From Alphaproteobacteria bacterium (GTDB lineage: Bacteria > Pseudomonadota > Alphaproteobacteria > CAAGCB01 > CAG-977), in assembly GCA_051888155.1 (NCBI GenBank), contig JBJFAY010000153.1:1-48176 (forward strand): 48,176 bases of DNA, read 5' to 3'. Each line of letters begins with the position of its first letter. The stretch's first letter is position 1. Made by a program: the position numbers and the translations under genes. Below, in pieces: positions 28,687 to 48,176 of the stretch. Below the pieces are notes generated by a model. It made no database searches. It saw only the letters and a program-made list of their open reading frames with translations, and was not told the origin of the DNA.

Positions 28687-28766
28687 CAAAACGATTTTCC
28701 GATTGCTAAAAAGAAACATTTGCGTGTACACTTTGTAACTGATTGATGTTGCAAACCGGAGCGCAA

Positions 28767-29552: not shown

Positions 29553-29983
29553 AACAGTTCGTCTACAAATAAATACAACGCTTCCGAAAAAGTCGGAAAA
29601 CTGCAGCTGTCTGAAAAATCCAAACGGTTAATAATATGGTATTTTTGATCAATGCTGTCATAGACGAATAATTCTTCCGCTGCGCGCCCTAACAGCAGCT
29701 TTCCCCGCATCGGAGCCGCTTGCTGAAATTCCAGATTGGCTTCAATCAGTCCCGGCAGCGTATAACCCAGCGCTTCTCTGTCATTAGCCCGCGTCCCGTA
29801 TAATTCCACGCCGTTCCAGCTCAGGCCGTCCGTTTGTTTTAATAACGCAATATAATCTACGGGAACAGGCGGAAAACGGTGCGAAGACAGCAAAGAGCTG
29901 ATAAAACGCAGAGATCGTTCGTCTACAGGGTCAAAAAAAGTACCGTTGTCTTTTCTTAAAGTATTTAAAATTCTTGTCAGCAT
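29549..29983 (-). CDS. SMI1/KNR4 (SUKH)-like protein, putative immunity protein
   Basis: 144 aa. FPPVPVDYIALLKQTDGLSWNGVELYG ... LLLGRAAEELFVYDSIDQKYHII follows the SUKH-1 pattern (lP.dY..fl...nG ... l..fg..g...y.yd). Starts 4 nt after the HNH-like gene. Confidence 0.5.
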   Translation of the reverse strand: MLTRILNTLRKDNGTFFDPVDERSLRFISSLLSSHRFPPVPVDYIALLKQTDGLSWNGVELYGTRANDREALGYTLPGLIEANLEFQQAAPMRGKLLLGRAAEELFVYDSIDQKYHIINRLDFSDSCSFPTFSEALYLFVDELF

Positions 29984-29987
29984 TTCC

Positions 29988-34617: not shown

Positions 34618-34638
34618 CGGTCAATTCTCCCAAATAAC

Positions 34639-35742
34639 CTATGCGCCATTTTCCGTTTCCATTAAATCGAGAATTGCCACGGCTACAGCGTCGTTCAAAG
34701 CCTGTGAAGACGCCGGCTGGGATTTTATATATTCAATTAAGGCATGCGTGTCTGGCAAAGAAGCCGTTTGACACGACCCCATACGTAAAACGGAAATGTC
34801 CCAAGTTTCCAAATATTTCAACAGTTCGTCGGGATTTGTAACATTGCCGTGATCTAAAATCATGCAGCAGTTGACATCTAAACCGGAATACTGCGGCATT
34901 TTTTCCGCAAAATATTTTTGTAATACGGCTTTTGCTTCGATCAAAGGCCGCAGCGGTGAGGGAATCGGCGCCGTTTCTGTTTTCCATACGGGCGGTTCCG
35001 CAGCTTCATCTATTTCCCAGGAACGCCCGGCTGCCGGCCCTTCGCACAGCAAAAAGACTCCTTCCCGCGTAATGGCAAAAGTATTGACCGAAAAATTTTT
35101 AATTTTCATTTGACGCAAGATAAAAATCTTCTCGGTTTCCAAAGATTGAACCAATTTTTCCCATAAGTCGAAGCGGGCGACGGCTTCATCTTCTTTGGAC
35201 AGTATTTTGCCCGTTGAGGTGGACGGGGCGGCGGTGCCGGTTTTCGCAGCGGCGGATTGTGCCGTTATAGCATGCTGTACGCCGGCTTTTTTGCCGCGCA
35301 GCTGATCAATATGCTGTAATTTTTCGGCAGAAATTTTAATTACTTTTTCCGGCTCTTTTTTCTTAGACAGTACTTTTTGTTTGTCGGCGGGACCGACTGC
35401 CGCGGCCAGCGACTGCGCCTGAAGCCGTTCTTTTTTCTTTTTTTCAAGATAGGTCAGCGGCAGGCGGAAAAATTTCAGCCAAGGAAACACATACACCGTG
35501 AACCATGTCAACAGAAATCCGGGGATCAATAACAGAACGGCAATAAAAAACAACACTTCTTTGGGTTTGTGAATTACCCAGCCACCCCGCCATTTGTTCC
35601 AGATATGCGTCCAATGGCGTTCGGAAATCAGGTCGAAATTCCAGAAGAACAGAAAAATTCCGCGGGCGATAACATAAAAAAGAACGGCGCCGACAACCGC
35701 AGAAAAAAGAAGACGGATAAAATGTATTTTCCCTTTTTTCAT
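34639..35742 (-). CDS. Hypothetical membrane protein with NERD-like C-terminal domain, paralogue B
   Basis: ATG 35742 with an AGGA RBS (the track start at 35766 is a TTG). HWTHIWNKWRGGWVI motif, a Lys-rich linker, and VNTFAITREGVFLLCEGPAAGRSWEI. Same architecture as 33580-34617. Confidence 0.6.
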   Translation of the reverse strand: MKKGKIHFIRLLFSAVVGAVLFYVIARGIFLFFWNFDLISERHWTHIWNKWRGGWVIHKPKEVLFFIAVLLLIPGFLLTWFTVYVFPWLKFFRLPLTYLEKKKKERLQAQSLAAAVGPADKQKVLSKKKEPEKVIKISAEKLQHIDQLRGKKAGVQHAITAQSAAAKTGTAAPSTSTGKILSKEDEAVARFDLWEKLVQSLETEKIFILRQMKIKNFSVNTFAITREGVFLLCEGPAAGRSWEIDEAAEPPVWKTETAPIPSPLRPLIEAKAVLQKYFAEKMPQYSGLDVNCCMILDHGNVTNPDELLKYLETWDISVLRMGSCQTASLPDTHALIEYIKSQPASSQALNDAVAVAILDLMETENGA

Positions 35743-35801
35743 GTGACGATCCTGTAATTTGAACAATTAAATATAGAATATAAAACTATTCGGGCAAATG
35801 T

Positions 35802-35846: not shown

Positions 35847-36977
35847 TTATCTTCCCGCATTTTGTTTTTTGCGTGCCGGAACCATGGAATTTCCCTGCTG
35901 GCGAGATTGCGGCCGGCTTTTTTTCCGGGCGATATTTTTCATCTGGGCTTTCAGATTAGAAAACATTTTTAGGTTGGCCTTCTGTTTCAGCTTTTTTACG
36001 CCTTTTTGATGGGCTTGTTTAACCTTATTTGTAATTTTCTTTTTCTGATCTCTGGCTGCCAGACCGGCTGCCTTTAAACCGATTCTCGCTTTCTGGACGG
36101 CTTTTTGCCCCTTTGTTTTTTTCTTGATGTCTCCGTCAACAATTTTATTGTTAACGCCTGTTTCTTTTTGCATGGCCGCCAAGGCTTTTCTGTCGCCGAC
36201 CAATTCAGCTCTTGCTTTGCGTCCTTCCGGTGATTTTGCATAACCGGGGATAGTGGCGACATTCTTACGGTAATCCGCCTCACGCTGTAAAGATTCTACC
36301 GTCATCTGATCATACGCCTGCTGGTTTTTACCCAAAGCGGAATTGTCATAATTCCGGTTAGCCATATTTTTTTTGGCTTTATCTGCCAGATCCTGAGCCT
36401 TTTGCGCTTTAAGATCGTTTCTTTCCTGCTGAGAAGTCTTTGCGGGCTTTTCTTTATCTTTTCCGGACTTGTCTTTGTTGTCCTTATCTTTTCCCGGTTT
36501 ATCTTTATCGGCCTTATCTTTATCTTTACCGTCTTTGTTTTTTGTCTTTTTTTTGTCTTTATCGTCGCCGAGTTTTTGTTTTTCTTTTTTCTTGTTGATG
36601 AATTCAACACCCTTATTAAGTCCTTTGTCGATGTAGTAACCGACAAATTCCAAATTGCCTAACATCCAATTCCGCAAATCGTTCTTAAGAAATTCAATCA
36701 ACCATTTTGCGGCGTCATCTTCATTGTTTGTCTCTAGCCATTTATAATCCGGTCCCTTTTCTTTGTCTTTTTTTTCATGGGCTTTGGCATGGAAAGAGCC
36801 GACTTTCCCCTGCTGCTGTTCCTGTTGCTGTTCAGCCGTATATTCGCCGGCTTTCTCAGGAGTGGCAGTAAAATTTCCTTGTTCTGCCGTATTCTCACCA
36901 GTCTTCTGAGGCGTGGCAGTAAAATTTCCTTGTTCAGCTGAAGTTTTTTCCTGTTCTGTTTTTTCAATTTCTGCCAT
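35847..36977 (-). CDS. Lys/Asp-rich low-complexity protein with basic C-terminus (hypothetical; candidate secreted substrate)
   Basis: 376 aa. AAGGAGA RBS. Two 17-aa repeats AEQGNFTATP(Q/E)K(T/A)GE(N/Y)T, a KDKDK-type tract (about 36438-36590), and a C-terminal ~60 residues rich in Lys/Arg. Confidence 0.6.
   Translation of the reverse strand: MAEIEKTEQEKTSAEQGNFTATPQKTGENTAEQGNFTATPEKAGEYTAEQQQEQQQGKVGSFHAKAHEKKDKEKGPDYKWLETNNEDDAAKWLIEFLKNDLRNWMLGNLEFVGYYIDKGLNKGVEFINKKKEKQKLGDDKDKKKTKNKDGKDKDKADKDKPGKDKDNKDKSGKDKEKPAKTSQQERNDLKAQKAQDLADKAKKNMANRNYDNSALGKNQQAYDQMTVESLQREADYRKNVATIPGYAKSPEGRKARAELVGDRKALAAMQKETGVNNKIVDGDIKKKTKGQKAVQKARIGLKAAGLAARDQKKKITNKVKQAHQKGVKKLKQKANLKMFSNLKAQMKNIARKKSRPQSRQQGNSMVPARKKQNAGR
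36828..36938. repeat. 51-nt (17-aa) tandem repeat inside the Lys/Asp-rich protein gene
   Basis: ggcagtaaaatttccttgttc... recurs with a 51-nt period. Protein repeat is AEQGNFTATPxKxGExT x2. Confidence 0.75.
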
Positions 36978-37084
36978 TGAAGTTCTCCTTCAGAATTTGA
37001 TCAATATACTTACTAAAGTTAAGCATACGGAAAAAAATTTTTTTTGTCCAGAGCGTCATTAAAAATTCATAAAACGGCTTTTTG

Positions 37085-38173
37085 TTATACCTTTAAATTC
37101 TTTAAAAAAGAAGCAAGCCTTTTGTTAACGGCGATCGCGTCTTTTGGAGACGGTTTAACCAGCCCGAAGAATTTTTTCGGCAAACGCTCCAGCTGAATCG
37201 GTGAAAAGAAAAGCGGGTTTGTGATCAGAGTTTCATAGGCTTTGTCCGGATCTTTTTTGGCCAGCGTGAAGTAATTATTGATCAGCTTTTTTGCATCAAC
37301 GGGAAAATGCTTGCGTTCAATGGCGTCAATGAAGTTTTGCTTCATTTCACGCTCTTCTTCTTCCATTCCTTTGATGTCGTCAACGATCTGGTCTGATTCG
37401 TTTTCGATGTCAAGTACGTTCAGTTTTTCCTGAATGATCTGCATATCTACCATAACAGTCAGATAAGCAATCAGAATTTGCTGTGCGGTTGACAGTGTTT
37501 CTTGATTTTCGATGCGTTTCAGTTCCGACTGAATAATTTGTTCCAGCGGAGCCTTATTGGCCATGATTCTTTCCATGCCGGCGACAAAAGGCGCCATTTC
37601 GACAAAATCGTCTAATATGGCGGCCAGCAGATCATTATCAATTTCGTCTAACAGTTCGCCCGCCTGCAAAGTATCTTCAGGCAGCTCAATCATCATCTGG
37701 GGGAAATTATATCCTTCCTCTTCGGCGATTCTCTGCGTATAAATCCGTGTATAAACATATAAAAGAAAAAGTTTATCTGTAACGTTTTCACGGTTTTCAA
37801 TGGCTTCCAGAATATTGTCCGGCAACGTATAGCTCAGCGCTTTGATTTCTACGCCATTTACAATTTGGCCGGCGAAAGATTTCCGCTTCGACGGCGAATC
37901 GGAAGGAATGGCCGGCTGAATATCAGGGCGGACTTGTTGCTGAACGGGTGGTTTTGCGGGAACTTTAACCAGAGTCGGCTGTTCCGGCGCAGGCGTCGCC
38001 GGCCGAGGCGCCGAGATCGGCCGTTTAACAGGGACTTTGACCAAAGTTGGCTGTCCTGCTGCCGGTGCGGCAGGCTGGGGCGCTGAGATCGGCCGTTTGA
38101 CAAGAACTTTTACTTTCTTGACGAGAACCTTTTTTACAACGGGCTGAGGAGATGTCGGTTGCTGCGAATCCAT
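37085..38173 (-). CDS. Hypothetical protein with Pro-rich repeated N-terminus and ~260-aa acidic helical C-terminal domain
   Basis: 362 aa. Two 24-aa repeats KRPISAP(Q/R)PA(A/T)PA(A/P)(G/E)QPTLVKVP(V/A). No family recognised for the C-terminal domain. Confidence 0.6.
   Translation of the reverse strand: MDSQQPTSPQPVVKKVLVKKVKVLVKRPISAPQPAAPAAGQPTLVKVPVKRPISAPRPATPAPEQPTLVKVPAKPPVQQQVRPDIQPAIPSDSPSKRKSFAGQIVNGVEIKALSYTLPDNILEAIENRENVTDKLFLLYVYTRIYTQRIAEEEGYNFPQMMIELPEDTLQAGELLDEIDNDLLAAILDDFVEMAPFVAGMERIMANKAPLEQIIQSELKRIENQETLSTAQQILIAYLTVMVDMQIIQEKLNVLDIENESDQIVDDIKGMEEEEREMKQNFIDAIERKHFPVDAKKLINNYFTLAKKDPDKAYETLITNPLFFSPIQLERLPKKFFGLVKPSPKDAIAVNKRLASFLKNLKV
37955..38098. repeat. 72-nt (24-aa) tandem repeat inside the Pro-rich protein gene
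   Basis: gagatcggccgttt(a/g)ac... recurs with a 72-nt period. Confidence 0.75.
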
Positions 38174-38414
38174 ATCTTTCTATTTTTGTTACGGTTTGTA
38201 TCAATTTAAAATAATATGTTGAGGCCAAAAGGCTTTTCTGTCAACATTATAAAAAAAATCACATCGATGCGATAGTGTTTTGATCAAAAATCAAAAAAGT
38301 GTCATATTTCTTTGTATGATTTTGTTCTATCATGAATAATAAGGTTTTTGCAGATTGACTGTTGCAATTGTATTCTGTCTGTAAATATAGGCTTTACCTG
38401 AAAGGAAGTTCGGC
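38174..38414. promoter_or_regulatory. Divergent control region between the two T4SS-related gene blocks
   Basis: 241-bp AT-rich spacer between divergent starts 38173 (minus) and 38415 (plus). Contains inverted repeats TGTTGA-N18-TCAACA (38217-38246) and TTGAT-caaaa-ATCAA (38280-38294). Confidence 0.4.
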
Positions 38415-40595
38415 ATGAAGAAAAATAAGGGTGAAAATAAAATCGTATTATGTATGCTCTTGCTTGCATGTCTTTTAAGTGTCATGCCTGTTGTTCCTTC
38501 TCAGGCGGGCTGGTTGGATTTCGGTTGGCAAACGGAGGAGTTTACAAAGGATGAAAATAAACCGGCTGATGAACAATGCAATCTGTTAAGAGATGTAGAA
38601 GAGGCTAAAAATAAGGGGAAGTGGTGGAAGACGCCATTGGAAACGGCTCTCAAGGCCTCGCTTTCGGTTGGTAAAACCGTATCTGAGAAGGCTGCGCCGG
38701 GTGCTCAAAAGTTGATGTTTGTCGGTGCGGGATTGTGGCTGGCGGTATTTACGTTAAAGGTTGTCGGCAGTATGGTGGAATCCGATCCGAGGGAGAATTT
38801 GACAAAGGTCGGCGGCATGATGCTGAAAGTGGGGTTTGCTGCCGCCTGTTTGTCTAGCATAGGGGGGGGGGAGAAGCTATATAGCAGCTATTCCTTTTTT
38901 GATGTGGCGATTGCTTCAGTCGTTGAAGCTGGTGCGGGGTTTGTTGACACAAGCGACATTACCGGAGTAGACGGCGCGGTTAAAATGGGTAATGTAAAAA
39001 TTGGCGGTGGCTTAGATGCTGTTGAAAAGGTTTTGATAGACATGGCTGAGGAAACCCATACAATTATCGCCGATGTTATAGGAAGGGGAAGATTCCTGGG
39101 GTGTATCGGGGATATTCATAAACTCAGCTTAAGTGTAGCCGGTGATGTAACGTTCCCGGATCCCAAGGTTTGGATGTCGTCCTGTGTTATTGTTGTGGGG
39201 GCATACTTCTTTTTATTTTTATTCCCGTTCTATTTAATTGAAGTGTGTGTGCGTCTGGGAATTGTGGTCGCTTTATCTCCTTTGTTTGTCGTTGCCTGGG
39301 TTTTTGATGTGACAAGAGAGTTTACTAAAAAAGGAGTTCAGGCCTTATTGCACGTGGCGTTTACGTTTATGATGATTAAAATAATCGTTCTTGTCGCAAC
39401 TAAACTGTTAATGGGCGGAGCCGGTTTGGATAAGCTGAAGACGGGCGGTTTAGATGAAAAAAAACAAATAGTGTGTACTTTCAGATGGGGCTATTTAGGG
39501 GACGATGACGTCTGTGAAGGCGTAGAAAAAGGCGAAACAAACAATATGTTTATTTATTTGGCCTGCATTGTCTATGGTTGGCTGTTGTTGTCAAAAGGCA
39601 ATGAACTGGCAAATTATTACAGTAATACAAATTTCTCTGCAGATTCGTCTTTTGCAGCGGCAAGAAATGCAGGGCAAATGGTTCATAAGGCGGCTCAGAC
39701 AGGGGTAAATAAAACTATTAACGCGGCCGGTGCGGTAAAAGACCGGATCCAGACTCATAAAGACCGTGCGGCGGCGCGCACATATGAAAAAGACCAGCGG
39801 GCTCGCGCGGCGGCGGCAAACGGCGGTCCGGCGTATAATCCGTCTGCTAAGCAGCTGAAAAAAGTTGAAGCGGCTAAGAAACGTCTGCAAAGCGAACGTG
39901 TCGGGGCTTTAAACAGCGACGGTACGGAAAATGGTCAAAAGATGTCTAAACTGCTTGAAAACGGTAAAGCCAGAACGGCAATGCGCGGTCTTGAAAAAAT
40001 TCATAACGCTACTGTCGGTCGTTTAGCGGATAAAGTAGGGATTTCTAAATTTGGTCAAAAGCTTTCATCGAAAGCGTCGTATCAGGCAAAGAACGGCAAT
40101 TTCTTTGAAAGACAGGCCGGAAAAATTGGAAACAGGCTCGGTAAGGATATTCAAAATATAGGAAGCCATGACAAATATAAAAATATGGGCAGCTCTTACA
40201 GTGAACGTAGTGCGGAGCAGCTGCAAAATCTGAAATCTGTCGCGCCGACAGGGATAGCGGATGTCAACGAACGAGATGTTAGCTTGGCTAAACAGAGAAT
40301 GGCTAACATGCCTCCGCCAACTACAGAGCAGGAAAGGAAACAGCAATTCTATAATCAAGCAAAATTGTTGCATCAGGAAGACGTGCTTGATTACAATAAA
40401 AAAGTAGCGGCAGATCCTAATTATGCCAATTCTGTTGCGGGTCAGAAAGCAATGCAAAAAATGACTCAGGATAACTATGATTTGCAGCAATATAAGAATG
40501 ATAACGGGGTAAACGATGATCTTTTCAAGAGTAAAACTGCTAAAGAAAAATGGAATACAGTTAAAGGAAAGGTCAAATCTGCATTTGGAGGCTGA
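38415..40595 (+). CDS. virB6: VirB6/TrbL-family T4SS inner-membrane protein, paralogue 1, with ~330-aa hydrophilic C-terminal extension
   Basis: 726 aa. Signal peptide. AQKLMFVGAGLWLAVFTLKVVG and VVALSPLFVVAWVFDVTREFTKKGVQALL parallel A. tumefaciens VirB6 as I remember it (LLAIGPLILVGYIFDRTRDIAAKWIGQL). Multiple TM segments. Lys/Asn/Gln/Ala-rich tail. Confidence 0.75.
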   Translation: MKKNKGENKIVLCMLLLACLLSVMPVVPSQAGWLDFGWQTEEFTKDENKPADEQCNLLRDVEEAKNKGKWWKTPLETALKASLSVGKTVSEKAAPGAQKLMFVGAGLWLAVFTLKVVGSMVESDPRENLTKVGGMMLKVGFAAACLSSIGGGEKLYSSYSFFDVAIASVVEAGAGFVDTSDITGVDGAVKMGNVKIGGGLDAVEKVLIDMAEETHTIIADVIGRGRFLGCIGDIHKLSLSVAGDVTFPDPKVWMSSCVIVVGAYFFLFLFPFYLIEVCVRLGIVVALSPLFVVAWVFDVTREFTKKGVQALLHVAFTFMMIKIIVLVATKLLMGGAGLDKLKTGGLDEKKQIVCTFRWGYLGDDDVCEGVEKGETNNMFIYLACIVYGWLLLSKGNELANYYSNTNFSADSSFAAARNAGQMVHKAAQTGVNKTINAAGAVKDRIQTHKDRAAARTYEKDQRARAAAANGGPAYNPSAKQLKKVEAAKKRLQSERVGALNSDGTENGQKMSKLLENGKARTAMRGLEKIHNATVGRLADKVGISKFGQKLSSKASYQAKNGNFFERQAGKIGNRLGKDIQNIGSHDKYKNMGSSYSERSAEQLQNLKSVAPTGIADVNERDVSLAKQRMANMPPPTTEQERKQQFYNQAKLLHQEDVLDYNKKVAADPNYANSVAGQKAMQKMTQDNYDLQQYKNDNGVNDDLFKSKTAKEKWNTVKGKVKSAFGG
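38862..38871. repeat. G(10) homopolymer inside virB6 paralogue 1
   Basis: ata-GGGGGGGGGG-agaag encodes ...SIGGGEK.... Confidence 0.9.
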
Positions 40596-40689
40596 CTGAT
40601 AGATTGAAGGAAACGGGAAAAATTAAGATAATGCTTTAAATATCTTCGTTACAATAAAACACGGTTTTACAAAGTTTAGGAATAGGCAA

Positions 40690-42297
40690 ATGTTAAGACA
40701 TAGAATAACATTTTTAAAAAAGAGCGATATCGCACGTTTTGTGTGCGTACTATTCCTTTGCCTTTGTTTAGGAATGCTGTGCGGTTGTGAAGATACTGCT
40801 CCTAATTCACATTCGCAGGGGGAACTGGCGGTTGCTGCAGAAAAGGAAACGCTGAACTGCTGGACATGTTCGCTTTTTAAATTAGGGTTTGGTGTTGCGA
40901 ACAGTTTGGCAACGAGCGTGGTTAAATCTGTCGCCGGCAGTGCGCTTTCCCTGCTGGCGGTCGGTTACGGATTATGGCTGGCTGTATATATTTTAAAGCA
41001 GGTTTCTTCAATGCAGGCGCCGGATCCCGGAGCTTTTTGGAAAGGACTGGCCGTACAGACGTTTTTTGTTACGCTGGGAGCCGGAATGTTGCGGGATTTA
41101 TCCGGAGAGGGAGAATCTTCCTCGTCTGTTCTGGAAATGATCGTCAAACCTATTTTTTCCGGTTTTGTTGATGTCGGATTATTGGTTGTCGGCGGCTTTG
41201 GGGATCTTCCCTGTTCTGCAGGAGGGGATCCCGGCGTCGGTATGGAGTGTCTGGTTGAGGCATTGCAGCAAAAACTGAATGTCGGAGTCGCTTTTGCTTA
41301 TCTTAACGCAACGACCGGGCCGACAATTTTCAGTATTATTCTGGGGGTCATTGTTTATTGTTTTTTCATCTACATGATGCTTTATTTCCCGCTGTTGTTG
41401 CTGGATTGTGTGTTCAGGTATTGCATTGTTCTTGCAATGTTGCCTTTAAGTGTGACGGCCTATTGCTTTAAATGTACGCGAGATTTTGCGACGCAAACCG
41501 TAAAGCTTTTAGTGGAAATCGGTTTGGGTATTACCGGTATGTGCGTTTTTATTGCGGTCGTTGTTGAAGTTGTTCGAGAATATATTGATACTTTTTTACC
41601 ATACATTCAAAATCCGACTTCTCTTTTAAGCGATCCGATGATGCTTGATAAAGCTATACAGGGACCGGGCATGACAGGACTGATGTTTGTGTTAACTTTC
41701 CTATGCATTTTCGGCGGCGTGGTTCTTGAATTGATGGAAAATTTCTCTCAAGGTATGGGTGGACTGGGAAGTACGGTCAAAGAAACCATTGGCGCTTTCA
41801 AGGGGGGGGCCGCTATGGCTAAACAGTTAGGCAAGTTTGCGGTCAACCGGAGAGCCAGAAAAAATGACGCCAAAGCTAAAAAGACAAAACAAGCTTTGGA
41901 AGCGAAAAAAGCCAGCGGAAAAACACTGTCGAAAGATGAACAAAAAGCTCTGGATAAGGCGAACGGTCGTTTAATGTTTCGCGGTTATTTGGCTCAGGAT
42001 AAAAACGGTCACATGTCGCAGGACAAAGGAGCCAGTCTGCATAAAACAAAAGCTTATGACAACTTGGGCAAAGGCGGTGTTAGAAATGCTTTGAAAAATT
42101 TGTCGGAAGATTGGAACAGCGATGTAATGGGCAATGCTTCGCGTCATGATCACAGCCATAACAAAGTTTCCGAAGAAGGTTTTACAGGGGATTTGAAAAA
42201 GGATAATTTGGTAAATGATATGTATGGAGATAAGTCTCTGAGGCAGCGCATGGGAGACGGCCTGAAAAAGGGAATGAAAAATCTTGTAGGCGATTAG
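40690..42297 (+). CDS. virB6: VirB6/TrbL-family protein, paralogue 2 (lipoprotein-like signal), with ~170-aa basic C-terminal extension
   Basis: 535 aa. LGMLCGC lipobox-like signal. CWTCSLFKLGF motif. LLAVGYGLWLAVYILKQV. VLAMLPLSVTAYCFKCTRDFATQTVKLL. Confidence 0.72.
   Translation: MLRHRITFLKKSDIARFVCVLFLCLCLGMLCGCEDTAPNSHSQGELAVAAEKETLNCWTCSLFKLGFGVANSLATSVVKSVAGSALSLLAVGYGLWLAVYILKQVSSMQAPDPGAFWKGLAVQTFFVTLGAGMLRDLSGEGESSSSVLEMIVKPIFSGFVDVGLLVVGGFGDLPCSAGGDPGVGMECLVEALQQKLNVGVAFAYLNATTGPTIFSIILGVIVYCFFIYMMLYFPLLLLDCVFRYCIVLAMLPLSVTAYCFKCTRDFATQTVKLLVEIGLGITGMCVFIAVVVEVVREYIDTFLPYIQNPTSLLSDPMMLDKAIQGPGMTGLMFVLTFLCIFGGVVLELMENFSQGMGGLGSTVKETIGAFKGGAAMAKQLGKFAVNRRARKNDAKAKKTKQALEAKKASGKTLSKDEQKALDKANGRLMFRGYLAQDKNGHMSQDKGASLHKTKAYDNLGKGGVRNALKNLSEDWNSDVMGNASRHDHSHNKVSEEGFTGDLKKDNLVNDMYGDKSLRQRMGDGLKKGMKNLVGD
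41802..41809. repeat. G(8) homopolymer inside virB6 paralogue 2
   Basis: ttcaa-GGGGGGGG-ccgct encodes ...FKGGAA.... Confidence 0.9.
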
Positions 42298-42359
42298 GAG
42301 GCGCTATTTAGACTGGTTAAAAAAAACGTATTCTTTGGCGAGGGGAAAAGGAGCAAAAA

Positions 42360-42575
42360 ATGTCCAAGTTAAAACAATATATTGTTTTTGGCGGGTTATT
42401 GTTTCTTTTTCAAATGGATTCTGTAAAACGAATTTTTCAGTCGCCGTCTTTTTTGAATACGGTTTTGGGGGGTATCGGGATTTTATTGGTTATAGCGGTG
42501 ATTATAACAATTTCTGCTCAAAAACGTCAAAAAAAGCAGAAAGAAAATGAAGACGATAGGGCTTCAATATTATAA
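42360..42575 (+). CDS. Small 2-TM membrane protein (hypothetical)
   Basis: 71 aa. AAAGGAG RBS. Two hydrophobic segments (IVFGGLLFLF and VLGGIGILLVIAVIITI) and a basic/acidic tail. Confidence 0.55.
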   Translation: MSKLKQYIVFGGLLFLFQMDSVKRIFQSPSFLNTVLGGIGILLVIAVIITISAQKRQKKQKENEDDRASIL

Positions 42576-42591
42576 AGGAAGGTTTTGGCAA

Positions 42592-44019
42592 ATGACGAAA
42601 CATGTTACGTTAAAACGATTAGTGATCGGAGTGCTGCTGTTTTGCGGCGTGTTTGCCTATACTTCCATTCATTCCGCTCATGCTTTCAGCATTTATGATA
42701 AGAAAATGGAAGACGTTTGCGATTCATGGTCTCAGAATATGCAGGACTATCAAGGGCAGGAACATTGCTGGACATGTCAGATTTTCGTACTGCTTTTTGA
42801 TGCTGCCAACAAAGCGGCCGGACAAATTAACAATGCCTTATCGCCTCCAATTATGAAAGCTGTTGTTACTCTTTGTTCGTTATGGCTGGCCATTCACACG
42901 CTGATTTTTTTCAGCGATGTGGGGAGCGCTCCTAATTTAATGGCATTTTTAACAAAAATCGGGGGTATGATGATCCGGGTCGGGTTCGGTTATGCCCTCT
43001 TGGCCGGCGGGGCTCAGCTGGCTTTTGATTATGTTATCAATCCTGTTTTGACAGACGGGGCAAAATTGGCGACAACTGTTTTGTCAACGACGGGACTTTC
43101 CCCGGGGTGTGAATTTACTTCCAGCGGCGGCGGTTCGCCGACAAGCGGGCCGATGGGGCAAGAGGTACGCGAATCTTTGAAATGTATGATTGAAAAAATT
43201 GCTTCCGGCATGGCGCGCAGTCAGTCAATCGCACAAGGGTTGCGTTGCGGTGCAATGTTTTACGATTTCGGATTCCTTAATCCGTTCCCGCATCCGGGCA
43301 TGTGGATTGTAGGGGCAACTTTTGGGTGCTTTTTCTGGTTTATTTCTTTCCTGTTCCCGTTGGTTATGCTGGACGTTATTTTCCGGATCGGATTAATGGC
43401 CGGTATGCTGCCGTTGTTTGTCGCGGCTTGGATTTTCCCGATTACGGCCTCATATGCAAAAAAAGCATGGGATATTTTCTTGCAGTCTTGTCTTGTTTTC
43501 GTCGTAACGGGGCTGATTGTTTGTATACTTGTGGCTCTGGTTGACCAGTCTTGGGGAGCCGGCGATCAGACGATCATAAATGCTTTTCAGCAGAAAATGG
43601 AAGCTAACCAATATACAGATGCATGGGACGAGCTGTTTTCCGGCGGAGTCGGCAGAGGATTGGTAAATTTATTCCTGGTGCTGTGCGTTTGCTTCTGGGG
43701 CGTAGGCATTGCTTCTAAATCAGACAAAGTGGCAAATGAGTATGTGGGAGAAGGAAAATATCCGGACAATTGCGCGGTTAAGGCCATTGAAGCAATAATC
43801 AGTTTTATTTTTGATGTGATTATGGCGGTTATTACAATTCTTACTTTTGGCGCGACGTCTTGTCTGTATCTTTTCAAACTCGGTAAATATATGTCCGACA
43901 GTGCGAGAAAGCTTCAGGAAATTATCAGGCATCTCAGAAGGATAAAAGAAAAAGTACAAAAAATTCAGCAAAAAATGCAAAAGCTTCAGAAGGTGGCTTT
44001 CCATCAACGGGATAAATAA
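42592..44019 (+). CDS. virB6: VirB6/TrbL-family protein, paralogue 3
   Basis: ATG 42592 (MTKHVTLKRLVIGVLLFCGVFAYTSIHSAHA signal) follows an AAGGAAGG RBS. CWTCQIFVLLFD motif. TLCSLWLAIHTLIFF. MAGMLPLFVAAWIFPITASYAKKAWDIFL. The track start at 42547 overlaps the small ORF. Confidence 0.72.
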   Translation: MTKHVTLKRLVIGVLLFCGVFAYTSIHSAHAFSIYDKKMEDVCDSWSQNMQDYQGQEHCWTCQIFVLLFDAANKAAGQINNALSPPIMKAVVTLCSLWLAIHTLIFFSDVGSAPNLMAFLTKIGGMMIRVGFGYALLAGGAQLAFDYVINPVLTDGAKLATTVLSTTGLSPGCEFTSSGGGSPTSGPMGQEVRESLKCMIEKIASGMARSQSIAQGLRCGAMFYDFGFLNPFPHPGMWIVGATFGCFFWFISFLFPLVMLDVIFRIGLMAGMLPLFVAAWIFPITASYAKKAWDIFLQSCLVFVVTGLIVCILVALVDQSWGAGDQTIINAFQQKMEANQYTDAWDELFSGGVGRGLVNLFLVLCVCFWGVGIASKSDKVANEYVGEGKYPDNCAVKAIEAIISFIFDVIMAVITILTFGATSCLYLFKLGKYMSDSARKLQEIIRHLRRIKEKVQKIQQKMQKLQKVAFHQRDK

Positions 44020-44197: not shown

Positions 44198-45193
44198 ATG
44201 GAAGAGATTATCTTTCCGAATCAGATTCGTATGTATCGCCGTGTGCGCGGCCGTTCAATGCAGGAATTGGCTGATTTTTTAGGCGTCAGTCTTTCTGCGG
44301 TCAGTAAAATCGAAAAAGGCTACAGACGCATAGATCAGGAACAGTTGGTTCGTATCGCGGAATTTTTGGATTGCCCGTTACAGGAAATCTTTGTGAACGA
44401 AGCCAGTTCTCAGCCTGATGTAGTTCAGGCCTGGCGGCGCGAACAGGAGCGGCGCAACCGTGTGAATGAACGCGGCGGTTTGAAAATGCTGGGGGCCGGG
44501 TTGCGTTATATCCGCGGCCAGAAAAATCTGACATTGGCAGACGTGGCGGACGGTTCCGAACTGACTTTGTCCGTTTATCATCGTATCGAAATGGGGCAGC
44601 GCGAAGTTTCCGAAGACGAAATTTCCAGAATTGCCCGGGCGCTGGGGTATACAAATGATGAACTGCAAAAACAAATCTATGATTTGGACAAAGCCGGCGC
44701 TTTGGAAGAATTTATTCAAAGAAATGATGCGCGTTACCGCACGATTTCCGGTGTGAAAACAGGATACCCCGAATTGCCTGTATCAAAGGTCGGCGGAGTC
44801 AGGCAGGAACGTACGGACGTTGTCTTGCAGGTTTATGGTCAGGCCGGTGAAAACGGCACGGTTATTATTGATCGTCAGGCGGCTTTAGGCACGGTGACCT
44901 GTTCTGCCGGCGCGGTTAATCCGATGTCGTCTTATGCTGTTTCCTTATGTACCCGTCGTTTAGGGAATTTATTGCCGGCGCGTTCGATATTGATTGTTGA
45001 TCCGACGAAAATGGTCGGGCTGGGCGATATTGCCGTTATGTATATTAATGAAACGGAAGCCCGTTTAATCAGTGTACGCGAAGATATTGACGGCAGAATG
45101 TTCGGCGTTTTATGGAATCCCGAAGAAAAAATCGAAATTCCCGAAGATAAAGCTTCGGCTTTGCACCGGGTAGTTCAGATTCATTTACCGTAA
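44198..45193 (+). CDS. XRE-family regulator with two HTH domains and a C-terminal S24 (LexA/CI)-like domain
   Basis: 331 aa. HTH 1 is IRMYRRVRGRSMQELADFLGVSLSAVSKIEKGYRRI. HTH 2 is LRYIRGQKNLTLADVADGSELTLSVYHRIEMGQREV. The C-terminus YAVSLCTRRLGNLLPARSILIVDPTKMVGLGDIAVMY has S24-like topology, but GNLLP replaces the G-(D/N)-S-M-x-P serine motif. Confidence 0.7.
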   Translation: MEEIIFPNQIRMYRRVRGRSMQELADFLGVSLSAVSKIEKGYRRIDQEQLVRIAEFLDCPLQEIFVNEASSQPDVVQAWRREQERRNRVNERGGLKMLGAGLRYIRGQKNLTLADVADGSELTLSVYHRIEMGQREVSEDEISRIARALGYTNDELQKQIYDLDKAGALEEFIQRNDARYRTISGVKTGYPELPVSKVGGVRQERTDVVLQVYGQAGENGTVIIDRQAALGTVTCSAGAVNPMSSYAVSLCTRRLGNLLPARSILIVDPTKMVGLGDIAVMYINETEARLISVREDIDGRMFGVLWNPEEKIEIPEDKASALHRVVQIHLP

Positions 45194-45310: not shown

Positions 45311-48176
45311 ATGAGCCCGCCGAAAAAGGATATGAAAAAATGGAAGCCGAAGTTTCCCGGTGCGGCGTCAGACGGGGAGGAAGACCCGTATGTAACGGCT
45401 CAGCGTTTTGTTAATGTTTACAGGCAGATGCATGTTTTGCGCGAGGATCTGGTATCGCGTTATAATGATATGCTGTTGGAAATTACTCCGGAAGCGCGAT
45501 CGACTCTGACGGATATACCGGGCGGTCGGGACGTGCGCGATTATCTGGAATATTTGGAGCATCAGAAATACGGGGACGATTACGTTTCTCAGGAAGATGA
45601 TGACGATGTGCTGGTTTCCAGGGAAGAAAAAGCCAAAGCGAAAGCGATTGCCGACGCTTTATCTTCCGCGCAGGAAAAGATGAATCAGAACCAGATGGCC
45701 GTCATGCAGCAAGCGCAGGAAGAATCCCGGCGCAATATGGAAATGCTGGCAAAGACGTTGTCCGAAGCCCGGCAGGATCCTTCCCGTCGTGAAGAAGCCG
45801 CCGAGTTGGCTCAGTCTTTGAAAAAAGCAAAGGAAGATTACTCTCATCTTGCCGCCGATTTGGGGGAAGCCGAAACGGCGTCGGAAATTGAGAGCGTTCA
45901 TGAAAAGTTGCGTTCTCAATATGCTCAGGCGCAGCAGGCGGGCAACGTTATCCAGGGCGGGCTGGAACAATTGTCGGACAAAGGGGCCAAAGGATTGGAC
46001 GCTTTGGTTTCCGCTTTGACGGAAGCGCAGGTAAAGTCGGCTGAACTGCAGGCAAAAGCGCAGTCGGAAACAATGGCCAAAATTTTTTCGCAAAGCCAGG
46101 AAATGACGGCGCGGGCAATGGCGGAGGCATTCGCCAAGTCACAGCAAAGCGCGGCGGAAGTTCAAGGCAGCCTGATTGCCAAAGCGATTGCCGATTCTCA
46201 AAAACATGCGAATGAAACGCTGGCGTCTTTGTTCGCTTCCATTCAAAGAGGGGGCAGTCTGCCGGCAGCGGCGCCGCCGCAAATTGTTATAGAAAATAAT
46301 AATTCGGCGGCTTCGGCGATTCAGTCCGAGAATATAGCCGTTCAAATCAAAGCGATGGTTCAGGCGCAGGTCGAAGCGCAAAAAGAAATTCTGGAAATGC
46401 AGAAAAAAGCGATGACCGAAGCCGCGTCGGTTCCGCAGATGATGGGCGGCGGCGTGGGTATGTCTGCGGCGGAACAGGCGAAGATGATTGCAGACGTAGT
46501 CGCGCAGACGCAAAGCTCTGTTTTGACGGAAACGATGGGGCAGCTGATGCATCGTCAGGAAGAATCGCAGCGTTTTCAGGCAACATTGATGGCGGAGGCT
46601 TTTTCAAAGCAGACGCAGGAAATTGCTTTGGCTTTATCGAATGCGCAAAAAGCGGTTCGTAACGAAACGCTGGCTTCTCAGGCGCAGGCTGTCGCTCAGG
46701 CAATGATTCGGGCGCAGACGGCGACGCAGTCTGAAACGATTACGGCTCAGGCTAAAGCGATAGCGACGGCAATGACGGAATCGCAGAACGCGCTGCAAGC
46801 GGAAGCTTTGGCGACACAGGCGCGCGTCGTGGCCGAAGCGGTCGCGGAATCTCAAGCCAACGTTCAGCGTGATGTGCTGGCTGAACAAGCGCGCGTCGTG
46901 GCTGAGGCGATGTCTGAATCTCAGGCCAGCGTGCAGGCGGAAGCTTTAGCGACACAGGCGCGCGTCGTGGCTGAAGCGGTGGCGGAATCTCAAAGCGCCG
47001 TTCAAAAAGAAGTCTTGGCGGAACAAGCGCGCGTCGTTGCGGAAACGCAGGCGACTATTCAACGTGATGTGCTGGCTGAACAGGCGCGCGTCGTGGCTGA
47101 AGCGGTGGCGGAATCTCAAGGCGCCGTTCAAAAAGAAGTCTTGGCGGAACAAGCGCGCGTCGTTGCGGAAACGCAGGCGACTATTCAGCGCGATGCTTTG
47201 GCTGAACAGGCGCGCGTTGTGGCCGAAGCGGTGGCGGAATCTCAAAGCAGCGTACAAACAGACGCTTTGGCTGAACAGGCGCGTGTTGTGGCTGAAGCAA
47301 TGGCGCAGCAACAAAATACGTCTTTATCCGAAACGGTTGAATTGTTAAGTCAGAAACAAATGGATCAGACTTCGGCTTTGGCGACGGCGTTAGCGAAACA
47401 ACAATCAAAGACGCAGGAAGTCATTCATACTTGGGCTCAGGGCAGTCTGCCTGCCGGAGGAGGATCCGGAGTACCGCCCACTCAGCCGCCCGTGCACGAA
47501 TATTATGATACGCCGTATACGTCGGGGTACGAAGAGGCCGCGGTAGAATCTCCGGTTCAGGAAGAAAGCCAGCCCAAAAAGAAATCGCGTGAACTGCCAA
47601 AAATGGATTTGTCCGATTGGAATGCTAATTTGGACGAAGCTTTTTCTTTGTCACAAAAAGCCGCTGCCGAAGCCGGTTACGATTTGGACGATAATTGGGG
47701 ATACGGTTATGCCGATGCGTCCAGTGAAGAGGTAGATTATTCCGCTTCCGATCAACAGGAAGACGTTTATAACTATCAGGACACGGAAGGGTACGAAGGC
47801 GATCAGGCTTATTATGATTATCCGCAGGAAGATCAAGGACTTTACGGTTATGTCGCTGCCGGTAATTACGGGGCTTATTATTACACAGATGAAAACGGCA
47901 ATCCGTATTATTTAGATACGAACGGTAATCCGTATTATGTTGACGAAAACGGGCAGGCTTATTATGTCGATGAAAACGGGCAGGCGGTTTATTTCGATCC
48001 GAATACTGTCGGAGAACAGACTCCGGAACAGGAAGCGCCGGCTTATTACACAGATGAGAACGGCAATCCGTACTATTTAGATGCGAACGGCACTCCGTAC
48101 TATGTTGATGAGAACGGACAAGCTTATTATGTCGATGAAAACGGGCAGGCGGTTTATTTCGATCCGAATACTGTCG
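45311..48176 (+). CDS. Large repeat-rich coiled-coil protein with Tyr-rich C-terminal repeats (partial; continues past window end)
   Basis: I translated this frame by hand from ATG 45311 (GGAGAAGAA RBS) to 48176 and found 955 codons with no stop. Absent from the ORF track, apparently because it has no stop in the window. Ala/Gln/Glu-rich with AEQARVVAEAVAESQ repeats, then YYTDENGNPYYLD repeats. Confidence 0.8.
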   Translation, partial: MSPPKKDMKKWKPKFPGAASDGEEDPYVTAQRFVNVYRQMHVLREDLVSRYNDMLLEITPEARSTLTDIPGGRDVRDYLEYLEHQKYGDDYVSQEDDDDVLVSREEKAKAKAIADALSSAQEKMNQNQMAVMQQAQEESRRNMEMLAKTLSEARQDPSRREEAAELAQSLKKAKEDYSHLAADLGEAETASEIESVHEKLRSQYAQAQQAGNVIQGGLEQLSDKGAKGLDALVSALTEAQVKSAELQAKAQSETMAKIFSQSQEMTARAMAEAFAKSQQSAAEVQGSLIAKAIADSQKHANETLASLFASIQRGGSLPAAAPPQIVIENNNSAASAIQSENIAVQIKAMVQAQVEAQKEILEMQKKAMTEAASVPQMMGGGVGMSAAEQAKMIADVVAQTQSSVLTETMGQLMHRQEESQRFQATLMAEAFSKQTQEIALALSNAQKAVRNETLASQAQAVAQAMIRAQTATQSETITAQAKAIATAMTESQNALQAEALATQARVVAEAVAESQANVQRDVLAEQARVVAEAMSESQASVQAEALATQARVVAEAVAESQSAVQKEVLAEQARVVAETQATIQRDVLAEQARVVAEAVAESQGAVQKEVLAEQARVVAETQATIQRDALAEQARVVAEAVAESQSSVQTDALAEQARVVAEAMAQQQNTSLSETVELLSQKQMDQTSALATALAKQQSKTQEVIHTWAQGSLPAGGGSGVPPTQPPVHEYYDTPYTSGYEEAAVESPVQEESQPKKKSRELPKMDLSDWNANLDEAFSLSQKAAAEAGYDLDDNWGYGYADASSEEVDYSASDQQEDVYNYQDTEGYEGDQAYYDYPQEDQGLYGYVAAGNYGAYYYTDENGNPYYLDTNGNPYYVDENGQAYYVDENGQAVYFDPNTVGEQTPEQEAPAYYTDENGNPYYLDANGTPYYVDENGQAYYVDENGQAVYFDPNTV
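46802..47305. repeat. Tandem coding repeats (126-nt / 42-aa unit built from 23- and 19-aa subrepeats)
   Basis: gctgaagcggtggcggaatctcaa at 46970 recurs at 47096. Protein unit is AEAVAESQxAVQKEVLAEQARVVAETQATIQRDxLAEQARVV, with more degenerate copies on both sides. Confidence 0.85.
47876..48176. repeat. 165-nt (55-aa) tandem repeat at the C-terminal part of the long ORF
   Basis: ttacacagat at 47881 recurs at 48046. Unit is YYTDENGNPYYLD(T/A)NG(N/T)PYYVDENGQAYYVDENGQAVYFDPNTVGEQTPEQEAPA. The second copy is cut by the window end. Confidence 0.85.

Follow-up and report, generated by a model that had tools for sequence, protein, structure and literature searches.

Three tandem genes for VirB6/TrbL-like proteins lie in the 48,176-nt stretch of DNA analysed here (the window), which comes from an uncultured alphaproteobacterium of the gut, and they raise the question of what kind of machine such proteins serve. 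The features of the locus are collected in Table 1. The three paralogues (paralogues 1–3, or P1–P3) are named B6_1, B6_2 and B6_3 in their order along the plus strand; numbers beginning with L denote related loci.

Table 1. Features of the VirB6-like locus and its neighbourhood
Feature	Position	Strand	Description
YrhA-family protein	29549–29983	−	144 aa; NF038335, 62.4 bits (cut-off 55)
u368	29988–31094	−	Pro/Gln/Tyr-rich N-terminus; C-terminal HNH-like (colicin/pyocin DNase-like) domain
VirD4/TraG-type coupling ATPase	31129–33447	−	772 aa; two N-terminal TM segments, acidic C-terminal tail
u345	33580–34617	−	Membrane protein; three TM segments, conserved soluble domain (GDWLADEERFNDEEPLWFSE)
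u375	34639–35766	−	Membrane protein; three N-terminal TM segments and soluble domain; paralogue of u345
u376	35847–36977	−	Lys/Glu-rich low-complexity protein; internal tandem repeats
u362	37085–38173	−	Soluble protein; Pro/Lys-rich N-terminus, helical C-terminal domain; divergent partner of the B6 cluster
Divergent intergenic region	38174–38414	.	241 bp, AT-rich, between u362 and B6_1
B6_1 (P1)	38415–40595	+	726 aa, extended VirB6-like paralogue; Sec-type signal, ~5 hydrophobic helices, basic tail of ~320 aa
B6_2 (P2)	40690–42297	+	535 aa, extended VirB6-like paralogue; lipoprotein-type signal, CWTC motif, basic tail of ~170 aa
s71	42360–42575	+	Conserved 71-aa small membrane protein between B6_2 and B6_3
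B6_3 (P3)	42592–44019	+	475 aa, VirB6-fold paralogue; Sec-type signal, CWTC motif, basic coiled-coil tail of ~55 aa
Double XRE-type HTH protein	44198–45193	+	331 aa; HTH_3 at 1.8e-26 in two stretches
Giant repeat protein	45311–48176	+	N-terminal 955 aa, cut by the window end; 1339–1415 aa in relatives

The VirB6-like trio

The original prediction described three tandem ORFs of 726, 535 and about 475 aa encoding divergent paralogues, and both points were borne out. The longest ORF for B6_3 spans 42547–44019 (490 aa), with an alternative start at Met16 that yields the length of 475 aa. Met16 is likely the true start, because the ORF then agrees with 474-aa gene calls in orthologues, begins with a clean signal peptide and no longer overlaps that of s71. 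By BLASTP, the similarity within the trio is far beyond chance, with 22% identity between P1 and P2 (E 1e-9), 24% between P2 and P3 (3e-17) and 28% between P1 and P3 (2e-21).

The assignment of all three proteins to the VirB6/TrbL superfamily is supported by sequence profiles and by a structural model. In the PF04610 (TrbL) HMM check, P1 scored 21.6 bits and P2 16.1 bits, both below the gathering score of 25.9, and P3 gave no match; two relatives, P0026 (36.2 bits) and P0037 (35.4 bits), exceed the cut-off, and one member of the P0026 cluster is labelled “type IV secretion system protein” by PGAP. With hhalign, a 74-sequence family profile aligned block 2 (see below) to residues 173–219 of A. 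tumefaciens VirB6 (E 2.8e-4). Within the trio, the AlphaFold model covers P3 only (pLDDT 85.2, pTM 0.75). Its confident Foldseek matches in the PDB were R388 TrwI/VirB6 chains only, led by 8rt9_F, 7o3v_J and 8rtd_L; the nine best were all of this kind (E 5.4e-4, probability 1.0), with TM-scores of 0.54–0.66 by target length. No other polytopic family matched P1–P3.

The predicted fold of P3 is thus that of the canonical VirB6 proteins, R388 TrwI and A. tumefaciens VirB6, which have the PL...(W/Y)xFxxT(R) block in common with the trio and, as expected here too, a periplasmic N-terminus. However, the canonical proteins are ~300 aa long, single-copy and without a cleavable or lipoprotein signal, are encoded beside VirB5 and VirB7–11, and are only ~12–21% identical to the window proteins. 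A possible counterpart of the essential Trp197 of A. tumefaciens VirB6 was found only in B6_3, offset by one residue.

Two hallmark blocks had been read from the sequences. The second, (L/M)(S/L)PL-x-V-x-A-(W/Y)-x-F-x-x-T-x-x-(F/Y), matches exactly in all three proteins. In the first, G-LWLA-x-x-L, all three proteins have LWLA, but three residues rather than two separate it from the L (LWLA-x3-L), and P3 has S in place of the G before it. The CWTC-x-(L/I)-F motif is present in P2 and P3, the corresponding site in P1 reading KWWKTPL, and a check on its cysteines found C-W-[TSA]-C retained in all P2 and P3 orthologues examined. The N-terminal sequences agree with the proposed Sec, lipobox and Sec signals of P1 (MKK...PSQA/G), P2 (LCGC) and P3 (...SAHA/F), respectively; most P2 orthologues have L-[ST]-G-C, and two have V-S-G-C or L-T-A-C.

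The C-terminal tails are long and hydrophilic, as claimed, but the proposed Lys/Asn/Gln-rich composition fits P1 only; the tail of P2 is rich in K/N/D/G and that of P3 in K/R/Q, and the net charges are +24, +16 and +11 for P1, P2 and P3, respectively. B6_3 has an additional C-terminal hydrophobic helix. B6_1 orthologues share six invariant Cys and have tails of 80–470 aa, whose identity falls to ~20% where the core is still 37–47% identical. Classical mapping of A. tumefaciens VirB6 places the C-terminus in the cytoplasm, whereas most VirB6 helices are periplasmic in the R388 structure (PMC12857230); with this disagreement, we counted tail topology against our best explanation. A VirB6 core with long, probably unstructured hydrophilic additions is also found in the extended VirB6 proteins of Gram-positive MPF_FA systems (PMC12857230), and some B6 relatives are fused to peptidoglycan hydrolase domains (M23, VgrG3-like C-terminal domain), recalling the VirB1-type functions of these systems. 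MPF_FA systems, however, are monoderm and conjugative, and always include VirB4 and VirB8 homologues.

The paralogues fall into three orthogroups, each of which holds copies from the window, L001, L004, L009, L010 and L012. Judged by these orthogroups and by the low pairwise identity, the triplication is ancient, with a separate set of orthologues for each copy across uncultured Alphaproteobacteria of gut and rumen, rather than a recent duplication within an ordinary conjugative element. An exhaustive profile search for the B6 family yielded 1597 representatives at E ≤ 1e-3, 199 of them at E ≤ 1e-30.

Genomic setting of the cluster

The cluster had been proposed to start at a divergent promoter. 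A divergent intergenic region is present, with GAAAGGAAG preceding the B6_1 ATG, but promoter-like matches in it were not above shuffled expectation; we presume that it is a bidirectional control region. The divergently encoded u362 had no match in Pfam or NCBIfam, and has homologues upstream of the B6 clusters in L012 (31% identity) and L021 (36%). Two low-complexity proteins are a recurring module around B6 clusters; u376 is fast-evolving, with 50–75% identity across loci, and was undetected in some. The small protein s71 is kept in all related loci (32–80% identity) and has no similarity to VirB2 or VirB3. Of its two predicted TM segments, one is clear, but the second is only a short N-terminal hydrophobic stretch.

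Neither VirB1–5 nor VirB7–11 genes were found within ~10–45 kb of the cluster in ~8 lineages, in agreement with the earlier statement that the upstream virB3–virB4 pair of Rickettsiales is absent here. No further Vir genes were detected in the window by Pfam or NCBIfam, or in the flanks of any locus sampled by precomputed Pfam annotation, and hhalign comparisons of 12 neighbour families with VirB1–11 of A. tumefaciens gave probabilities below 5% in every case. No ordinary conjugative genes were found just beyond the window in the syntenic contigs. The flanks consist of housekeeping genes that differ between lineages. From this gene content and the high identity of VirD4 (88–95%) and the HTH protein (94–99%) across loci, we regard the cluster as chromosomal and fixed, in a context that is neither a conjugative element nor Rickettsiales-like. 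By analogy with the scattered Rickettsiales system, VirB4 and VirB8–11 may be encoded at another locus of these genomes.

The secretin operon and the VirD4 module

Downstream of the B6 genes, a recurring operon encodes the double-HTH regulator and the giant repeat protein, together with a Pro-tailed soluble protein, a lipoprotein secretin that resembles BfpB and a bitopic membrane protein. In all five contexts sampled (L012/13, L015, L016, L021 and the window clade), 3–5 tandem B6 genes are followed by the HTH gene, the giant N-domain, d336, the secretin and d292; the B6–HTH–giant–secretin order also occurs in L022. The double-HTH gene directly follows the last B6 gene in all loci except L010, where the HTH–giant–secretin genes do not adjoin B6_3. 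Its product is the best conserved of the system (94–99% identity in close and 48–78% in distant loci), with a C-terminal domain that matched no family. In the giant protein, which may be a substrate or a surface fibre, an N-terminal domain conserved in L012, L015, L016 and L021 is accompanied by an Ala/Gln/Glu repeat of 42 aa and YYxDxNG repeats of 9 aa.

Because the secretin gene lies outside the window, we infer its presence next to this cluster from synteny with relatives that are 85–95% identical. In these relatives it encodes a 411-aa lipoprotein without a Pfam Secretin match, the structural model of which (pLDDT 84) matched BfpB best in Foldseek (5.5e-10), followed by PilQ, InvG, GspD and pIV, with 27 matches at E ≤ 1e-3. 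The predicted fold is shared with the lipoprotein secretins of type IVb pili (BfpB, TcpC, PilN) and with T2SS and T3SS secretins. In contrast to those systems, there is no pilin, prepilin peptidase, PilB/GspE ATPase or PilC/GspF platform gene here, and the partners are VirB6-like proteins and VirD4. The word “secretin” is absent from a 171,000-character review of T4SS diversity (PMC12857230).

Within the window lies another recurring module, consisting of a VirD4 ATPase, a membrane partner and an HNH-like/YrhA pair. The VirD4 gene, which the original prediction had not included, is 5 kb from the B6 cluster on the opposite strand and was identified by PF02534 (4.8e-56), PF12696 and PF10412. It is next to the B6 cluster in L001–L011 and lies on the same contig at a distance of ~16 kb in L018/L022; in L012, L015 and L016 it was outside the sampled flank. 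Linkage of their genes alone does not prove that the B6 proteins, VirD4 and the secretin work as parts of a single machine. Upstream of VirD4, u345 is a constant neighbour, immediately so in L018 and L019; its paralogue u375 probably starts at 35742. In u368, a candidate effector, H272, N287, H297 and H301 are invariant, and the best PDB sequence match was a weak one (E 0.18) to the pyocin AP41 DNase, over the HNH motif. The YrhA-family gene follows the u368 homologue in every case, and its product is a candidate immunity or partner protein. A VirD4 gene whose neighbours encode a putative toxin of nuclease type and a small partner protein recalls the bacteria-killing X-T4SS of Xanthomonadales; however, X-T4SS loci have a full VirB1–11 set and XVIPCD-bearing effectors, and the partner here is 90–98% conserved, which is not usual for a toxin–immunity arms race.

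Models for the apparatus

We give a probability of about 0.5 to a T4SS-derived, secretin-linked envelope apparatus that includes the VirB6 trio and VirD4. The three B6 proteins, probably joined by s71 in a mixed oligomer of VirB6 type, would together build the inner-membrane and periplasmic core of the machine, and u345/u375 would be the membrane adaptor of VirD4. Substrates, for which the HNH-like protein and the giant repeat protein are candidates, would be recruited by VirD4 and taken by the VirB6 assembly over the inner membrane and periplasm; the secretin would then serve as the outer-membrane gate, in place of a VirB7/9/10 core. Such an apparatus would presumably work independently of VirB4.

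Tandem, diverged VirB6 paralogues are known from the Rickettsiales Rvh T4SS (Rickettsia RvhB6a–e; Anaplasma/Ehrlichia VirB6-1 to -4; PMC2653234, PMC7648143), and it is possible, if doubtful, that the trio and VirD4 belong to a conventional, scattered P-type VirB/D4 machine of that sort, with VirB2–4 and VirB8–11 elsewhere in the chromosome and the secretin, giant and HTH genes as an unrelated neighbouring system. The hosts are likewise Alphaproteobacteria, several strongly diverged VirB6-domain genes stand in tandem, and the TrbL/VirB6 cores carry large hydrophilic extensions that are highly variable between relatives; Rickettsiales typically combine such extended copies with dispersed vir genes (PMC2653234, PMC7648143). 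As in Rvh, there is a VirD4 gene; it is intact and highly conserved, and its nearest plasmid relatives, which are only 35% identical, sit in complete VirB2–11/D4 loci. However, the Rickettsiales orders, virB6 after virB3–virB4 and virD4 after virB8–11, were seen in 0 of ~8 lineages, the partners of VirD4 are always non-Vir, and the HTH–giant–secretin operon, a neighbour that sets these loci apart from Rvh, stays beside the B6 cluster even at 20–30% B6 identity. The copy number, three here against four or five in Rvh, also differs; in the present loci the extensions are C-terminal only, the signals are of cleavable or lipoprotein type, and the hosts are flagellated gut bacteria rather than obligate intracellular ones.

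The B6–HTH–giant–secretin order in L012, L015, L016, L021 and L022 is the most constant feature of the system, and VirD4, adjacent in some lineages only, is grouped in L018 and L019 with u345, u368 and YrhA as a separate mini-module. These observations would fit a system for export or for a surface fibre that is built around the secretin, with the VirB6-fold proteins as no more than an inner-membrane platform and with VirD4 acting separately, for example in HNH delivery or DNA handling. We consider this unlikely, given the proximity of VirD4 to the B6 genes in L001–L011 and L018/L022 and the u345 homologue beside the B6 cluster in L021; moreover, the secretin operon encodes no further ATPase that could power export. 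The conjugation-type VirD4 and VirB6 genes and the absence of VirB4 and a relaxase from the window might suggest an integrated conjugative element in decay, with most of its transfer genes gone. This reading is highly improbable, since every ORF is intact, VirD4 (88–95%) and the HTH protein (94–99%) are conserved between genomes whose B6 proteins are 34–87% identical, synteny holds across lineages despite different housekeeping contexts, and there is no integrase, the nearest tRNA gene being ~1.8 kb beyond the cluster, behind two DUF1189 genes.

The secretin-linked apparatus with VirB6 trio and VirD4 suggests an undescribed kind of secretion machine, one that would be confined to a clade of uncultured Alphaproteobacteria from gut, rumen and digester.

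Three tandem paralogues of the VirB6/TrbL superfamily

The three VirB6-like genes, B6_1, B6_2 and B6_3, lie in tandem, with a gene for a small membrane protein, s71, between the second and the third. By pairwise BLASTP, their products were 22–28% identical to one another, with E values of 1e-9, 3e-17 and 2e-21, far above chance, bearing out the original prediction of three tandem, divergent paralogues. B6_3 most likely starts at Met16, since its orthologues are called at 474 residues, the signal peptide is then normal and the overlap with s71 is removed. An exact-sequence look-up of the B6_3 protein of the window returned no record, similarity between s71 and Agrobacterium tumefaciens VirB2 or VirB3 was sought and none was found, and scans for promoters and terminators gave matches that were not above shuffled expectation. 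The positions of all features are collected in the table.

Features of the locus and of related loci (positions are in the window unless a related locus is named; identities are to the window across loci)
Feature	Position	Strand	Remarks
B6_1, 726 aa	38415-40595	+	34-67% identity
B6_2, 535 aa	40690-42297	+	42-87% identity
s71, 71 aa	42360-42575	+	
B6_3, 490-aa ORF (475 aa from Met16, 42592)	42547-44019	+	43-86% identity
Double XRE-type HTH protein, 331 aa	44198-45193	+	94-99% identity; C-terminal domain without family assignment
Giant repeat protein	45311-48176	+	Runs off window end; 1339-1415 aa in relatives
Lipoprotein, 411 aa, predicted secretin	L002 19545-20780; L004 19933-21168		About 4-5 kb past window end by synteny
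VirD4		-	88-95% identity
u345 (345 aa) and u375 (375 aa), paralogous membrane proteins	33580-35766	-	N-terminal part with three TM segments, plus soluble domain
u368 (368 aa) and YrhA-family protein (144 aa)	29549-31094	-	Directly after VirD4
Proteins with Pro-rich segments	35847-38173; syntenic d336/d292: L002 18515-19525, L014 11248-12126		
Family members with fused domains	P0037, P0105, P0113; L015 7869-10808; L016 7386-11879		
Two DUF1189 paralogues, 269 aa each	27877-29552		
tRNA-Glu	27638-27713		
DsbA/thioredoxin-like gene	L018 2703-3443; L022 19904-20644		

Two sequence blocks had been named as hallmarks of VirB6. The second, in the polytopic core, matched exactly in all three paralogues. 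The first was present in a modified form: LWLA was found in all three, with the spacing LWLA-x3-L rather than x2, and the leading Gly was replaced by Ser in paralogue 3. The proteins are polytopic, with at least five hydrophobic helices according to a hydropathy scan and the helices of the B6_3 model. The tails measured about 320, 170 and 55 residues in paralogues 1, 2 and 3, close to the predicted 330, 170 and 60, and were Lys-rich and strongly basic, with net charges of +24, +16 and +11; Asn and Gln, also predicted, contributed only in some. Paralogues 1 and 2, having hydrophilic additions near the C-terminus, match the description of "extended VirB6" (PMC12857230). For the side of the membrane on which the basic tails lie, the precedents differ: a cytoplasmic C-terminus is expected from the classical mapping of A. 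tumefaciens VirB6, but most helices of the R388 VirB6 are periplasmic in the structure (PMC12857230).

The motif CWTC-x-(L/I)-F was common to paralogues 2 and 3, as originally described, paralogue 1 having KWWKTPL instead, and in the form C-W-[TSA]-C it was kept in every orthologue of the two that was examined. The CWTC segment is most likely periplasmic, because it lies after the cleaved signal and before the first hydrophobic helix; in the B6_3 model it is found at the N-terminus of a long helix. Most orthologues of paralogue 2 had L-[ST]-G-C as lipobox, and two had V-S-G-C and L-T-A-C. One lineage has a DsbA/thioredoxin-like gene in the housekeeping stretch that separates its secretin cluster from its VirD4 module, which may be a coincidence and is of note given the conserved, probably periplasmic CxxC of paralogues 2 and 3.

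The gathering score of PF04610 (TrbL/VirB6) is 25.9 bits, and the window proteins all fell below it, with 21.6 bits for B6_1, 16.1 bits for B6_2 and no match for B6_3. It was exceeded by two relatives, P0026 (36.2 bits) and P0037 (35.4 bits); precomputed matches are recorded for P0010, P0018 and P0019, and a member of the P0026 cluster was named "type IV secretion system protein" by NCBI's pipeline. A profile of 74 family sequences aligned block 2 to residues 173–219 of A. tumefaciens VirB6 (hhalign, E 2.8e-4), a region that includes the essential and conserved Trp197 (PMC2653234). At this site, B6_3 orthologues hold a Trp one residue past the aligned position, and B6_1 and B6_2 have none. A 453-residue presumed VirB6 of an Erythrobacter plasmid was also tried as hhalign reference and gave no match; it has no TrbL hit itself and was a poor reference.

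Paralogue 3, the sole one modelled, gave an AlphaFold model with a pLDDT of 85.2 and a pTM of 0.75. Its top Foldseek matches in the PDB, 8rt9_F, 7o3v_J and 8rtd_L, are all TrwI/VirB6 chains of R388, with probability 1.0, a best E of 5.4e-4 and TM-scores of 0.54–0.66 on target length; the next family reached a probability of 0.47 or less. The sequence profile of the B6_1 family returned only low-complexity noise from the PDB, showing that the relationship to VirB6 is remote, and homology to the solved VirB6 structures is visible, judging from the model, by fold only. Together, the relatives above the cut-off, the profile alignment and the B6_3 model settle that the B6 proteins belong to VirB6/TrbL, at the superfamily level.

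An old and fast-evolving family

Only 20 clusters of B6 relatives were recovered by a word-indexed search. With a threshold of E ≤ 1e-3, an exhaustive profile search returned 1597 representatives; 199 remained at E ≤ 1e-30. The family thus counts about 1600 representatives at 50% identity. The named representatives all come from uncultured Alphaproteobacteria MAGs (gut, rumen and digesters), and most family members bearing a name are called "hypothetical protein".

Every related locus held a separate orthologue of each paralogue. In a neighbour-joining tree of the B6 cores, without bootstrap, the copies from the window, L001, L004, L009, L010 and L012 fell into three separate groups, from which it follows that the triplication predates these lineages. 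Recent duplication, which if inside an ordinary conjugative element would have undercut the original prediction, is ruled out by these three orthogroups. More distant lineages have three to five B6 copies, and some distant members carry fused domains: an N-terminal M23 peptidase, a C-terminal domain like that of VgrG3 (T6SS), or RHS repeats in the tail.

Judged by identity across loci, the B6 genes change far more quickly than the genes around them. The tail of B6_1 is down to about 20% identity in the most distant orthologues, in which the core is still at 37–47%. The most conserved gene of the locus is that for the HTH protein, at 94–99% where the VirB6-like proteins are at 34–87%, falling to 48–56% in the most distant lineages sampled. 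Such constraint is unusual for a local regulator.

VirD4, a predicted secretin and other linked genes

A divergent minus-strand operon begins 241 bp upstream of paralogue 1 and runs in the order u362, u376, u375, u345, VirD4, u368 and YrhA-family protein. GC skew goes from about −0.06 to between +0.15 and +0.26 at the divergent intergenic region (around 37000–38500) and remains strongly positive as far as the end of the window; the switch follows the change of coding strand. The VirD4/TraG coupling ATPase matched PF02534 (4.8e-56), PF12696 and PF10412, and has the Walker A motif GTGKT and LDEF in its sequence. The closest plasmid VirD4 proteins are just 35% identical and sit in complete VirB2-11/D4 loci. 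The constant upstream neighbour of the present VirD4 clade is u345, which shares the Trp-rich motif HW..IWN.W..GWVI with u375. The soluble domain of u345 has a strongly conserved GDWLADEERFNDEEPLWFSE stretch without a family match, and a PDB profile search with the u345/u375 family found nothing. A degenerate NERD-like domain in these two proteins is only a reading of the sequence, without tool support.

Downstream of VirD4, u368 has a Pro/Gln/Tyr-rich N-terminus and a conserved C-terminal domain, in which the invariant residues H272, N287, H297 and H301 are laid out like the HNH motif of colicin and pyocin DNases. Its best PDB sequence match was the pyocin AP41 DNase across this motif, at a weak E of 0.18, and it had no Pfam HNH match. 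The protein that follows belongs to the YrhA family (62.4 bits). The two resemble a toxin with its immunity protein, yet conservation of the YrhA-family protein between genomes is 90–98%. Two tandem DUF1189 paralogues between the YrhA-like gene and tRNA-Glu appear unrelated to the system.

The first genes of the operon encode u362, which is soluble and Pro/Lys-rich, and u376, a Lys/Glu low-complexity protein whose gene contains tandem repeats of 30 and 51 nt. Similar Pro-rich basic segments were seen in u362 (VKRPISAPQP), at the end of d336 (KMPVKMPAHPVKMP) and at the start of d292 (MPGMKMPAGMKMPP), and their presence in otherwise unrelated proteins of the locus hints at a common binding partner.

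On the plus strand, the HTH gene is followed by that for the giant repeat protein, which has no signal peptide and begins with a conserved N-terminal domain of about 100 residues. The gene includes 126-nt repeats (42 residues, Ala/Gln/Glu) at about 46794–47296 and 27-nt repeats (9 residues, YYxDxNG) from 47878; relatives also hold a very acidic region. In syntenic contigs, whose VirD4 is 93–95% identical, three more genes come after that for the giant protein, and beyond them lie housekeeping genes. The three encode d336 (331–336 residues), a 411-residue lipoprotein and the 292-residue bitopic protein d292. The model of the lipoprotein (pLDDT 84.3) matched BfpB (5.5e-10) and PilQ (3.4e-9), then InvG, GspD and pIV, by Foldseek. 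By this predicted fold it is a secretin, with N-domains and a C-terminal barrel domain. Pfam Secretin (PF00263) was not matched at E ≤ 1, nor was any other Pfam family, and a PDB profile search with the secretin family found nothing. The secretin gene is a neighbour of the VirB6-like cluster in every lineage sampled but L010.

A possible VirB6–VirD4–secretin system

The order of three to five B6 genes, HTH, giant N-domain, d336, secretin and d292 was kept in L012/13, L015, L016, L021 and L022. VirD4 orthologues at 62–69% identity occur in a mini-module of u345, VirD4, u368 and YrhA; one genome has this mini-module about 16 kb from the B6–secretin cluster on the same contig, and in L021 a u345 homologue lies next to the B6 cluster. 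This shuffled yet persistent linkage of four gene sets (B6 and s71; u362 and u376; VirD4, u345, u368 and YrhA; HTH, giant protein, d336, secretin and d292) argues for one system. We infer that the proteins assemble into a T4SS-derived apparatus, in which a heteromeric VirB6 assembly would form the inner-membrane and periplasmic core, VirD4 would choose the substrates and the secretin would serve as gate in the outer membrane; candidates for the cargo are the HNH-like protein and the giant repeat protein, and VirB4 would be dispensable.

The tandem VirB6-domain genes with large hydrophilic extensions, here three genes, two of them with tails of about 320 and 170 residues, are shared with the Rickettsiales Rvh system, from which such paralogues were already known (PMC2653234, PMC7648143). 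In Rvh, the virB6 genes come after virB3-virB4, and virD4 after virB8-11 (PMC2653234). Here, in contrast, the divergent operon upstream of the B6 genes lacks VirB3 and VirB4 in the window and in all related loci, as had been claimed for the window, and none of the four genes that precede VirD4 matches VirB8-11 in Pfam or NCBIfam, their hhalign probabilities being below 5%.

A VirB4 ATPase was found neither in the window nor, for about eight lineages, in the 10–45 kb around the cluster. VirB8, VirB9, VirB10 and VirB11 had no Pfam match in any locus stretch sampled, and no match to a VirB7/VirB9/VirB10 outer-membrane core was found in the locus, where the secretin is the outer-membrane candidate. 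Hhalign comparison of 12 neighbour families with A. tumefaciens VirB1-11 gave probabilities below 5% throughout, with power limited by the single-sequence templates. These loci could belong to a conventional T4SS that is scattered, with VirB4 at another locus, as the evidence here covers the linked loci; we consider this a serious rival reading, at well under even odds. The cluster is no ordinary conjugative element, and a prophage or integrative element was rejected on the lack of an integrase, the housekeeping flanks and the conserved synteny; positions 1–29.5 kb of the window are ordinary chromosome, with flagellin, PolA, a copper ATPase, BioG and an ABC-2 exporter. A PADLOC search for defence systems was negative.

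We put at roughly 0.3 the probability that the linked genes encode a new class of double-membrane secretion system, present in many uncultured host-associated Alphaproteobacteria. Its parts would be VirB6-fold proteins in a heteromeric set, a secretin, and a VirD4-type ATPase that has its own membrane adaptor; it would do without VirB4 and the VirB7/9/10 core, and export the giant repeat protein and/or the HNH nuclease. To our knowledge, VirB4 is regarded as the ATPase that marks all type IV secretion systems, and secretins count as the hallmark of the machines of type II and type III secretion and of type IV pili. If true, a conserved chromosomal system of VirB6, VirD4 and secretin would blur the division between T4SSs and secretin machines and would be a natural test of what VirB6 can do when the other T4SS parts are missing; should the absence of VirB4 be real, it would be a new class of secretion machine. 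A literature search for such a system, or for a T4SS in gut RF32-type Alphaproteobacteria, found nothing relevant, and a recent 171,000-character review of T4SS diversity nowhere mentions secretins (PMC12857230).

What is new is the finding of such paralogues as a large family, for the most part without names, in flagellated Alphaproteobacteria of gut and rumen, where they are linked to an operon with a secretin and to a VirD4 module of their own. It shows that tandem, extended, fast-evolving VirB6 paralogues extend beyond the obligate intracellular Rickettsiales, and the role of the VirB6 extensions, a puzzle in that order, is now approachable by comparison in gut relatives that are free-living and flagellated and of which public metagenomes contain many.
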